Positions 52,105 to 55,165 of a DNA stretch of 64,000 bases are shown one piece after another. Source of the stretch: a bacterium (GTDB lineage: Bacteria; UBA8248); contig OZ241996.1 of assembly GCA_965204535.1 (NCBI GenBank), positions 832,001 through 896,000 of the forward strand, written 5' to 3'. The notes beneath the pieces were generated by a model. It saw only the letters and a list, made by a program, of their open reading frames with translations, searched no databases and was not told where the DNA came from. Numbering within the stretch: position 1 is the first letter of the stretch; every line of letters starts with the position of its first letter. The position numbers were made by a program, and so were the translations under genes.

Positions 52105-53475
52105 TTAGCCAAAGTGTTTGGCCTGCTCCTTTGGAAGCTGTTCTCTTTCTGTTTCGTTGAATTCCCGTGTCGTGACCCGAGTATGTGCCAGAGGTCGCCG
52201 AACGGACTCAGGCGATATTCCGCCGCGAATCGCACAAAGCACGCCCGCCGCCTCCCAATAATTCTCGACAATATAGAGTTGATCGGAACGCCAAGGCAGC
52301 TTGGTCAAATCATTCTCCATCAGGTTCTTGTTTTCCCGCACGGCTACTACCGGAATGCCCTGCTCTAATGCAGCTAAAGTTGGTAATCCGACGCAACCAT
52401 CGGGTATTACCAAACACGAAATATCGGATGCCGATATGACACCGGGCTCGGAAATCTGAGACAAATCGGTAACAATTCGTGGACTTTTGTGAAGCCCTTT
52501 CAAAACACTCTCGAAAAATGTGAGGGAAATCGCTTCCGCCGCCATGCGCGGATCTACCACGCCTGGATCCCGATTCGCTATATCTTGGGTTTCGAACATC
52601 GGCGAATGGGCCGAGGGCATATTGAATCGGCTTGATACGGCATGGGTGAGCATAGCTTCCACACCACCCCAAGGATTCACCATTTCTCCTGCGGCATCGA
52701 AGTATCCTTGGTGAAACTCCTCGGGAACCGAGATAACCGAGGAAATTGCGACCGCATCGTATTCCCCTTCTTGCTCTTCGAGCACCGCAAAAACACGTTC
52801 GATACCACTGATTTCACCGGCAGCGGTACCAAAATCGGTAAACTCGGACCTCATCTTCAGTGGCGGTGAAAGTTTGATTACTTCGGGGCAAACCAAGCCG
52901 TAGGACGAGCGTGCCGCACTCACGGCGTTTATCGCGGCGTTCACGAACAAATCGTCTTTGTGGGCATCTATAATGACCAACACCCGGTTGGCTCGTGTTG
53001 GAACGAGGCCGATAGTTCCCATCAACAAACGAGCGATTACGCTACCTTCGACATATAGAGAATTAGCTGGCATCTCGTTAATGTCGGATGCGTTGACCAC
53101 GTTTGGATGTAGGATCAATGTATCGCAAGTTTCGGCGATCAGCCTTGCGGCCGACGTCGCATCACCCGCGTGGCCACCAATTTCGGCGCCTATACCCGTT
53201 GGAATCAAAAATGCGACATTAAACTGGCTCGTGTTCTCATACTTGCGCGGTACAAAATCGAATACCGAGATACCCGAGAGGTCGCCAAGTTGAGGCGACG
53301 TTTCTAAGCTGCTGATCGCACAACTAACATGGCCGCCATTTGACTTCGTAATCGCGAATCTGAGAGGTGCGATATTAGCAGTTAACCGAAAACGTGCGGC
53401 TTCTCGAATTTGTGAAAGCGCATTTTGCCTATCAAGTGCTATCGGCAGTTCAAGTTCCAACTCTCTCAAAAGCAA
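52105..53475 (-). CDS. DUF3326 domain protein
   Basis: IPTGIGAEIGGHAGDA, HPNVVNA, YVEG, PWGGVEA and AAEAIS.TF motifs. Confidence 0.78.
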   Translation of the reverse strand: MLLRELELELPIALDRQNALSQIREAARFRLTANIAPLRFAITKSNGGHVSCAISSLETSPQLGDLSGISVFDFVPRKYENTSQFNVAFLIPTGIGAEIGGHAGDATSAARLIAETCDTLILHPNVVNASDINEMPANSLYVEGSVIARLLMGTIGLVPTRANRVLVIIDAHKDDLFVNAAINAVSAARSSYGLVCPEVIKLSPPLKMRSEFTDFGTAAGEISGIERVFAVLEEQEGEYDAVAISSVISVPEEFHQGYFDAAGEMVNPWGGVEAMLTHAVSSRFNMPSAHSPMFETQDIANRDPGVVDPRMAAEAISLTFFESVLKGLHKSPRIVTDLSQISEPGVISASDISCLVIPDGCVGLPTLAALEQGIPVVAVRENKNLMENDLTKLPWRSDQLYIVENYWEAAGVLCAIRGGISPESVRRPLAHTRVTTREFNETEREQLPKEQAKHFG

Positions 53476-53497
53476 TTCATTCTCCTTACACTACCTA

Positions 53498-53962
53498 TCA
53501 CAATGTGCGTTCAATAAATGTCTTTTTGAAGGATACCGCCTTAAAGCGTTTGCTCGTAAATTCCGCTGCGACGTCTGGATCAAAAGGTTTGCAGGAAAAG
53601 ATGTTCACATAAACTGCGCCTAGGATGTCCAGCGTATGAATGACGATGGTGCTCGTCAGTATGAAACAGACGGCTGAAGTGCCCTTGGTGTGCGGCAGCG
53701 TTTGCTGCTCCTCCTCGGGAACTCCTACGTCATCCCAAAAGTGAACCTCACACTTTTCCATTTCAATCAGGTCGCAAAGATCGGTGAAGAACTTGTCAAT
53801 ATAATCCCGGTTGAAAAATCTGGCTTCACATCCCATCAGGTCAAGAACGAGCTCAAAACCATATACTTGACGACTAGCGGTGTCATCATTTTGACTTGCT
53901 AAACTCTCATCTACAGCATTTGGGGCCGCATGTCTCATCAAGCTACTCACCATTCGACTCAC
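53498..53962 (-). CDS. S-adenosylmethionine decarboxylase-like (pyruvoyl) proenzyme
   Basis: ELVLDLMGC, GTSAVCFILTSTIVIHT and VNIFSCK motifs. Confidence 0.8.
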   Translation of the reverse strand: MSRMVSSLMRHAAPNAVDESLASQNDDTASRQVYGFELVLDLMGCEARFFNRDYIDKFFTDLCDLIEMEKCEVHFWDDVGVPEEEQQTLPHTKGTSAVCFILTSTIVIHTLDILGAVYVNIFSCKPFDPDVAAEFTSKRFKAVSFKKTFIERTL

Positions 53963-55165
53963 TTAGGACTCTACAGTACCACGCATACGCTGAAACAACC
54001 TTTCAAATCCCATACCTGTAACTACTGCCCATACTACAGAAAGCCCAGCGTTCAACAATCCAGGCTTCGACAAATCTGGAACAGCGGCTCCACTCTTTAT
54101 CAGTTCACCCGCAAGAGCAGAAAAAATCAAAATTCCGGCTAACAGGCCTAGGGGAGCGCCCAATACCATTCGCCATAGCTCCCTCTTCCCAGAAGTAGAA
54201 CCGACTTCAACTTCGTTAGAATTCCTTAGACCAATCAATGCACTGGCAATTGACCCCGCAACACCGAGATAGCCCCAATTCAGAGCGCTCAATGAAAAAG
54301 CATATGAATGTGTAGAATCAGGTATTGAATATAGTATAGGGAGAATCCCCATTAAAGTGAAAACAACTACGCCTACCGAGCCACAAATTCTGATGCTTGA
54401 GACGATTGTCGAGCCTTCCGCCCAGTTATATTCATAGTCAGCTACATGCTCACGTAGTGAGCGGAGATTTGCACGCAGCGCCTCGACCTTATTATTTTTC
54501 TCGTCTTCTTTCTTTTCAATCTCTCGCTCCAGATCATCTATGTTGGAAGTGATCTTCTCTTCCCAACTATAATAAAGACTGACATCGTAAGAAAATGCAT
54601 CTCCATCTGCATATTCCTTAAGTTCTTCAAGGCTTGAGCGGGCACGTGCCTTAAGGTCTTCAATTGGTAGAAAATCAATCAGTAGGCGGTTTAATGTGAG
54701 GATTTGAAACTCCGTCCATCCATCAGGACCCAAATTTTCCAACCGGGACACTTCACTCTTTATTTGCTCCTTCCTTGCAGCGAGGCTGTCTAACATCTCA
54801 GGCTTAGTGGATTTCAGGTCAATGTTTTTCGCTTCTTGGATAAGCGCTTCAACTACACTTAGATCTTCTTTCCGGGCCTTATGGACAAATTGCCTGTGGC
54901 GAATGACAAACTCGGACACTAATCCTGATAGAAATCCCGCTAATGCGAGATAAGTGCAATATGTGCATTTGGGAGCAGTTCCAGGGTTCCCAAAAATTTG
55001 GTTACAAATATAGATGACGTAAAGAATGCCAACTCCCATCACGACTCTGGCAAAATAGAGAAAATAGCGACGCCAGAACGGGAGTTCAGGTGGAAGCTTG
55101 TCTTCCGGGGAGGTTTTTCGTCGCTGGATAGTTTTAGATTGTCCCTCATCAACTTGGTCTGGCAT
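53963..55165 (-). CDS. 2TM + helical + 4TM membrane protein
   Basis: Hydrophobicity pattern; stop directly abuts the AdoMetDC-like start. Confidence 0.75.
   Translation of the reverse strand: MPDQVDEGQSKTIQRRKTSPEDKLPPELPFWRRYFLYFARVVMGVGILYVIYICNQIFGNPGTAPKCTYCTYLALAGFLSGLVSEFVIRHRQFVHKARKEDLSVVEALIQEAKNIDLKSTKPEMLDSLAARKEQIKSEVSRLENLGPDGWTEFQILTLNRLLIDFLPIEDLKARARSSLEELKEYADGDAFSYDVSLYYSWEEKITSNIDDLEREIEKKEDEKNNKVEALRANLRSLREHVADYEYNWAEGSTIVSSIRICGSVGVVVFTLMGILPILYSIPDSTHSYAFSLSALNWGYLGVAGSIASALIGLRNSNEVEVGSTSGKRELWRMVLGAPLGLLAGILIFSALAGELIKSGAAVPDLSKPGLLNAGLSVVWAVVTGMGFERLFQRMRGTVES

Follow-up and report, generated by a model that had tools for sequence, protein, structure and literature searches.

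A three-gene operon in the 64,000-nucleotide stretch of DNA analysed here (the window) encodes a membrane protein, a SpeD-fold pyruvoyl decarboxylase and a DUF3326 protein. It is interpreted, with a probability of about 0.45, as a polyamine-controlled guard-type anti-phage system in which the membrane protein and the Septu proteins PtuA and PtuB (PtuAB) would be interchangeable effectors. This guard reading is supported by the pairing of the decarboxylase with DUF3326, the triamine made by PavAB, the exclusivity of the partners, a partner swap between loci L055 and L058, and changes of partner label on the DUF3326 tree. The fast divergence of the membrane protein, broken membrane genes and the lack of a full-length membrane gene without the enzymes also support it, as do the patchy spread of the cassette, the host's own SpeD-SpeE pair, PADLOC neighbours, residues of the cytoplasmic bundle and enzyme pairs carried by viruses. 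No description of this system was found in the literature.

In the proposed mechanism, DUF3326 would condense a diamine with a basic amino acid, and CO2 would then be removed by the decarboxylase to give a triamine. Within the guard reading this route is given slightly better than an even chance, the alternative being that the decarboxylase supplies putrescine from ornithine. The amine, made constitutively, would restrain the effector by binding either PtuAB or the membrane protein, in the latter case at its acidic and aromatic cytoplasmic bundle. Infection would drain the free amine, either through binding and packaging of phage DNA or through loss of precursor, and the released effector would depolarise the membrane or cut DNA.

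Structure, borders and mobility of the cassette

All three genes exist as intact, coupled ORFs (Table 1), with intergenic gaps of 0 bp and 22 bp, as the first-pass annotation had described, and the DUF3326 gene has a TTG start codon with an AAGGAG site ahead of it. The AT-rich character noted earlier was also borne out: the GC contents of the membrane, decarboxylase and DUF3326 genes are 0.45, 0.47 and 0.51, compared with 0.60-0.61 for the two contigs of the genome, and the adjoining Septu (0.48-0.51) and hsdM/hsdR (0.52-0.54) genes are low in GC as well.

Table 1 Features of the cassette in the window
Feature	Position	Strand	Remarks
Membrane protein gene	53963..55165	-	400 aa; first gene of operon
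SpeD-fold pyruvoyl decarboxylase proenzyme gene	53498..53962	-	154 aa; PF02675
DUF3326 (PavB family) gene	52105..53475	-	456 aa; PF11805
Spacer between DUF3326 and ptuA	51664..52104		441 bp
Septu PtuA, ABC-type ATPase, DUF3326-linked lineage	50371..51663	-	PADLOC PtuA E 2e-61
Septu PtuB, HNH nuclease	49538..50359	-	PADLOC PtuB E 1e-49

Upstream of the membrane gene and divergent from it, profile scans (including PADLOC) identified an hsdR fragment, hsdM, hsdS, a GmrSD-type gene and hsdR. The fragment (window 55682-56140; PADLOC REase_I E 7e-36) is a relic ahead of hsdM that encodes 152 aa from the N-terminus of a type I restriction subunit, and the GmrSD-type gene (window 59766-61736; PADLOC HEC-05 E 2e-42) lies between hsdS and hsdR. 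Downstream of DUF3326, on the same strand, ptuA and then ptuB follow after a spacer conserved at about 80% identity in two genomes of the same genus. An Rfam scan of 48000-57000 gave no match, and promoter-like sites in the spacer are no more numerous than expected by chance. The presence of ankyrin-repeat protein, YspA/SLOG-family protein and IS transposase genes (43165-44478, 45418-46434 and 46584-48068) indicates that the wider region is a mobile island.

A second, intact copy of the three genes (L083, C2:2561952-2565030) occurs in the genome as a low-GC insert, with neither Septu nor restriction-modification (R-M) genes beside it. Its proteins are 57% (membrane), 79% (decarboxylase) and 92% (DUF3326) identical to those of the window, as if the membrane protein were a different allele.

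DNA homology to the window extends from the membrane gene to DUF3326 in five loci (L002, L003, L004, L054 and L084), and from the decarboxylase through the spacer to ptuB, with no membrane gene, in L001 and L012 (about 80% over 4.5 kb). Judged by this homology, the window locus is a union of a membrane form and a Septu form. Metagenome locus L089 has the order membrane-ptuA-ptuB-decarboxylase-DUF3326, and the window PtuA is 74% identical to that of L074, where the order is ptuA-ptuB-decarboxylase-DUF3326. The homology blocks and the gene order of L089 place Septu within the cassette as a component, so the earlier description of Septu-like and type I R-M flanks holds for the genes themselves but not for Septu as a mere neighbour. 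The R-M locus is a bystander: an hsdR relative was found within 6 kb in 1 of the best 80 DUF3326 loci and hsdM or hsdS in none, which together with the second copy sets R-M outside the cassette and leaves the link to a SAM-dependent R-M system, proposed earlier, without a conserved counterpart.

Genome loci were surveyed as the best 80 of 310 DUF3326 loci, with neighbours within 6 kb. Of these, 74 carry a decarboxylase; the partner is a yjf-type cluster in 48, Septu in 15 and the membrane gene in 10, one locus has none of them, and no locus has two. Loci L055 (membrane gene) and L058 (ptuAB) are 83% identical in DNA on both sides of the slot, and the membrane gene and ptuAB thus swap in one slot. 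On a FastTree phylogeny of DUF3326 (82 of 156 rows, the NspC-yjf and viral rows being thinned to one third), strongly supported branches require at least six changes of the membrane label and at least five of the Septu label. The window and L089 carry the membrane gene and Septu together, which counts against the guard reading in that it fits an accessory role as well. Of 51 genomes from the phylum, 7 have DUF3326 and four convincingly have the membrane family (six are listed, two of them weak matches to another protein), and the cassette is an accessory, mobile unit. In three Septu-DUF3326 loci (L045:2682-3446, L050:134-592 and L073:2700-3434) a gene resembling that of 4-HFC-P synthase (MfnB) lies directly 5' of ptuA; its product may be an additional tailoring enzyme.

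The enzyme pair and its likely product

The decarboxylase beside DUF3326 is SpeD-fold in 24 and NspC-like in 50 of the best 80 loci, never both, and six loci have neither. For all six NspC-like PLP partners scanned, the best-scoring model is carboxynorspermidine decarboxylase (273-331 bits, below its cut-off of 409), compared with 73-93 bits for LysA. At eight viral loci on low-GC contigs (L144, L152, L154-L156, L158, L163 and L174; a cluster of which one member was scanned) the place of the decarboxylase is taken by a third decarboxylase fold, that of phosphatidylserine decarboxylase. Three unrelated folds with one chemistry indicate that DUF3326 needs a decarboxylase.

Genetic data were found for one DUF3326 protein, PavB of the pavABC pavettamine cluster. 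According to the parts of bioRxiv 10.64898/2026.06.12.731819 used here, PavA and PavB together yield the triamine N-(5-aminopentyl)pentane-1,5-diamine, and neither one alone yields this compound though cadaverine is present in all extracts. This result and the NspC likeness of the partners suggest that DUF3326 makes a carboxy-polyamine, which is then decarboxylated by the partner; the enzyme pair likely makes a polyamine-type amine, with DUF3326 as the likely amine-condensing step. The pavABC cluster shares the pairing of DUF3326 with a decarboxylase, but PavA is annotated with a carboxynorspermidine decarboxylase domain in place of the pyruvoyl SpeD fold, the likeness to PavB is that of a common Pfam family, and the partners here are the membrane protein and Septu. 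Neither the Rieske (PavA) nor the JmjC (PavC) domain was found among the 16 window proteins scanned with Pfam.

The 48 yjf-type loci among the best 80 are yjf/glutathionylspermidine (GSP)-synthase/K+-channel/SecA clusters outside defence clusters. The enzyme pair therefore also has non-defence uses, which counts against the guard reading and goes part of the way towards the refuting case named in the first-pass annotation, that of homologues mostly in ordinary polyamine operons. In the sections drawn on here, PMC11237479 (Ravi et al. 2024) reports spermidine-synthase-like and AdoMetDC genes in PspA/yjf operons and ties these operons to polyamines and membrane dynamics, which lends independent support to a polyamine product. 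The present locus has the decarboxylase-DUF3326 pair in common with these clusters, but none of their other genes was found at the locus or in this genome, except an ordinary SecA. In Dehalococcoidia, a SecA paralogue and the NspC-DUF3326 pair are separated by the gene for a protein of about 470 aa with no Pfam or NCBIfam family (cluster c3; L010:8753-10174 and 27 further loci).

The decarboxylase matches AdoMet_dc (PF02675; E 2e-15), and its S104, H109 and C124 align with S63, H68 and C83 of the T. maritima enzyme. Conservation of these residues (Ser, His and Cys in 90, 89 and 90 of 90 relatives) makes self-cleavage likely, and the protein is likely a self-cleaving proenzyme. It had been pointed out that the protein reads T-S-T where canonical SpeD has E-S-H while keeping the pyruvoyl Ser and the FSC Cys; this holds, the His, which like the Cys is important for catalysis, is kept too, and Thr in place of Glu precedes the pyruvoyl Ser in 83 of the 90 relatives. 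No spermidine synthase was found near the operon, in agreement with the first-pass annotation, and the canonical SpeD-SpeE pair of the host lies apart from the cassette on contig C2. The protein scores 30.1 bits against the SpeD equivalog TIGR03330 (cut-off 75.65), and because this is far under the cut-off and the slot is otherwise held by NspC-like enzymes, SAM is an unlikely substrate. The SpeD-fold protein is probably not a SAM decarboxylase, and its substrate is likely a carboxy-polyamine or ornithine.

Of the residues diagnostic for SpeDC (Gln, Thr, Phe and Tyr), Thr and Tyr are present (T103 and Y118), the Gln position is Cys here but Gln in 74 of 90 relatives, and the Phe after His is absent here and present in at most 2 of 90 relatives; the positions were mapped by us from the text of Fig. 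S5 of PMC10407285 and not from the logo figure. The Thr and Tyr (and the Gln in most relatives) in common with SpeDC make ornithine a live alternative substrate. As described in the parts of that paper used here (Li et al. 2023), the SpeDC ornithine decarboxylases resemble the present protein in their SpeD fold, in a Thr that precedes the pyruvoyl Ser and a Tyr that precedes the FSC motif, in the lack of a SpeE partner, and in horizontal and phage-borne spread. The partners given for SpeDC are SpeE, CASDH/CASDC or HSS, whereas the fixed partner here is DUF3326, and the present decarboxylase further differs from SpeDC in occupying the slot of NspC-like enzymes.

A SAM decarboxylase that links SAM status to defence beside R-M, as was first proposed, is highly improbable. 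Many phages attack SAM, and the SpeD fold with its intact Ser, His and Cys and the adjacent R-M genes would fit such a role, but the low score against the SpeD model, the T103 and Y118 of SpeDC, the replacement by NspC-like enzymes and the lack of co-conservation of R-M, including at the second copy, all speak against it. What remains of that proposal is a small-molecule pathway with a membrane effector or sensor and a link to defence.

The DUF3326 protein matches PF11805 over residues 88-425 (E 1e-88; 298 bits, cut-off 25); as the match begins at residue 88, the N-terminal extension noted earlier at about 80 aa is real, at about 85 aa. In the predicted structure (pLDDT 86.5) the extension is a separate small alpha/beta unit beside a Rossmann-like domain and a lumazine-synthase-like domain. 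The Foldseek check proposed in the first-pass annotation was run on the predicted structures, and for DUF3326 it gave Rossmann-like and lumazine-synthase-like matches with no close solved relative. The passages of PMC9992855 consulted do not name DUF3326.

DUF3326 might instead modify a protein, for example by placing an aminoalkyl group onto an effector lysine, without a free signal. Deoxyhypusine synthase adds an aminoalkyl group to a protein lysine, and the Rossmann-like domain and the link with YjfC-type ligase clusters would agree with such an activity. It is nevertheless judged improbable, as PavAB gave a free triamine (bioRxiv 10.64898/2026.06.12.731819, in the parts used), and near-identical enzymes serve two unrelated partners, which is easier with a diffusible product; the absence of deoxyhypusine synthase from the top 50 fold matches of the DUF3326 model may point the same way.

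The membrane protein family

The membrane protein, a candidate effector from an uncharacterised family, has two N-terminal membrane helices, an acidic and aromatic helical bundle, and about four C-terminal membrane helices; the six membrane helices are our reading of the model and the alignment, and a hydropathy scan gives four clear peaks. The predicted structure is all helical (pLDDT 83). Neither Pfam nor NCBIfam contained a match, and Foldseek gave none at E<=0.001. Known effectors were not matched by sequence or by Foldseek, nor was any found among PDB sequences, and this counts against the guard reading. At 50% identity the family falls into 228 clusters; those in the best 150 do not exceed 535 aa, and 20 distant members had no Pfam match over the cut-off. 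Asp/Glu and Trp/Tyr/Phe residues are conserved in the soluble bundle of the alignment, as they might be in a polyamine pocket. Over 47 aa the C-terminal helices weakly resemble a transporter ORF that we labelled EamA-like from its sequence (E 3e-5), and one distant member resembles VIT1 below the cut-off; both likenesses are counted against the guard reading.

A metagenome search with the membrane protein alone gave 19 loci, of which 14 were informative and five are truncated or run into the end of a contig. All 14 (two of them the same sequence) run on into a decarboxylase (12 SpeD-fold, 2 NspC-like) and DUF3326, and no full-length membrane gene without the enzymes was found among them; the membrane gene co-occurs with the enzymes far beyond chance, and the genes are a co-conserved unit, as had been supposed. 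Where the two proteins were compared between loci, the membrane protein had diverged more than DUF3326 in 19 of 19 cases. Broken membrane genes with no visible break in the enzymes were seen as a frameshift (L003), a stop (L091) and an internal deletion (G007), and are counted with reserve since such breaks in metagenome-assembled genomes may be sequence errors. In the last case (L113:229-672) the middle of the gene is lost (about residues 124-360), and the decarboxylase and DUF3326 look whole.

PADLOC matches other than methyltransferase domains were present within 6 kb at 6 of 10 membrane loci (two of the ten being from one genome). Ten yjf-type loci picked by hand gave matches at 2, in both cases to generic domains. 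The ORFs scanned were 52 of 71 around the membrane loci, where shadow-frame-like ORFs were dropped, and 38 of 38 around the yjf-type loci, where cluster genes were removed. No convincing defence neighbour lies near four of the 10 membrane loci, a further count against the guard reading.

Alternatively, the polyamine may be exported, imported or sensed by the membrane protein for envelope or stress physiology, with the Septu form alone serving defence. The yjf/GSP-synthase/K+-channel clusters, linked to polyamines and membranes in PMC11237479 (in the sections used), agree with this, as do the weak transporter-like matches and the coexistence of the membrane gene with Septu in the window and L089. 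It is considered unlikely in view of the clean membrane/ptuAB swap, the repeated label switches on the DUF3326 tree, the faster divergence of the membrane protein, the lack of a transporter fold in the Foldseek results, and a patchy cassette duplicated on mobile low-GC DNA.

Viral copies, direction of control and known guard systems

DUF3326 was found in 68 viral loci, with a SpeD-fold partner in 53, and none of these loci has the membrane gene, PtuA/B or NspC. In 51 of the 68 copies the match does not include the N-terminal extension. After eight near-duplicates were dropped, 57 loci had large neighbours, and a terminase, portal, head or connector gene is among the two nearest large ORFs in 20 of the 57, a figure without a background rate and counted against the guard reading on that account. 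Phages plausibly use the product for DNA condensation. In L128, L167 and L186 an ornithine cyclodeaminase/mu-crystallin gene lies just 5' of the viral DUF3326, with no decarboxylase seen, and in L160 (3158-5008) a 617-aa viral protein 5' of DUF3326 has a C-terminal SAM-decarboxylase-like domain (fusion).

Carriage of the enzyme pair by phages indicates that the product is useful to them, which fits an inhibitor of the effector better than an activator, and the amine may act as the inhibitor. An activating defence, in which the enzymes are switched on by infection and their amine product opens the membrane effector or sets off PtuAB, would share the linkage data and show the synthase and swappable effector that are the usual layout of CBASS- and Thoeris-type systems. 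It is regarded as quite unlikely: phages carrying the same enzymes would trigger it, no sensor domain was found besides the extension of about 85 aa, and the observed decay falls on the membrane gene.

A more specific form of the guard reading is put forward only tentatively, and on balance is doubted. It holds that in a family of such systems the polyamine signal is made by an undescribed route, with DUF3326 condensation followed by a pyruvoyl decarboxylase of carboxy-polyamines that arose anew from the SpeD fold; that amine loss to phage DNA packaging is read by a new polyamine-gated membrane pore or by Septu; and that the phage enzyme copies condense DNA and keep the guard silent. If true, phage DNA packaging would be tied to detection. 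Independent of defence, DUF3326 can be tested as a new polyamine synthase, the SpeD fold is proposed to have a third new activity, and the membrane proteins define a new family whose enzymatic partner is fixed. The cassette (3 kb, or 5.6 kb with Septu) is small enough for tests in E. coli.

In retron-Septu, Panoptes and Hailong, a constitutive product restrains an effector and is lost on the trigger (review PMC13434031, in the parts used here). The adjacent PtuA ATPase and PtuB HNH genes (PADLOC) are in common with Septu and retron-Septu (Ec83/Ec78), and in retron-Septu a constitutive product keeps the nuclease inactive, a logic that may apply here. The module linked to PtuAB here, however, is the decarboxylase and DUF3326, and a membrane protein can replace the nuclease; the window proteins are far below the cut-offs of the NCBIfam retron PtuA/PtuB models, no reverse transcriptase was found among the flanking ORFs, and 48000-57000 held no Rfam match. 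Panoptes (OptSE) and Hailong (HalAB) have a constitutive inhibitor synthase and a membrane effector that fires on loss of the inhibitor, as would be the case here. The enzymes of the cassette belong to PF02675 and PF11805, with no nucleotide-polymerase or NTase synthase, and the membrane protein has no PDB sequence or Foldseek match that would relate it to OptE or HalA. The cassette would thus work like retron-Septu, Panoptes and Hailong but is a member of none of them. The signals of Panoptes and Hailong are nucleotides from polymerase-type enzymes, whereas the likely signal here is a polyamine, and since the guard defences covered in the sources used are restrained by nucleotides or nucleic acids, a polyamine would be an immune signal of a chemically new class.
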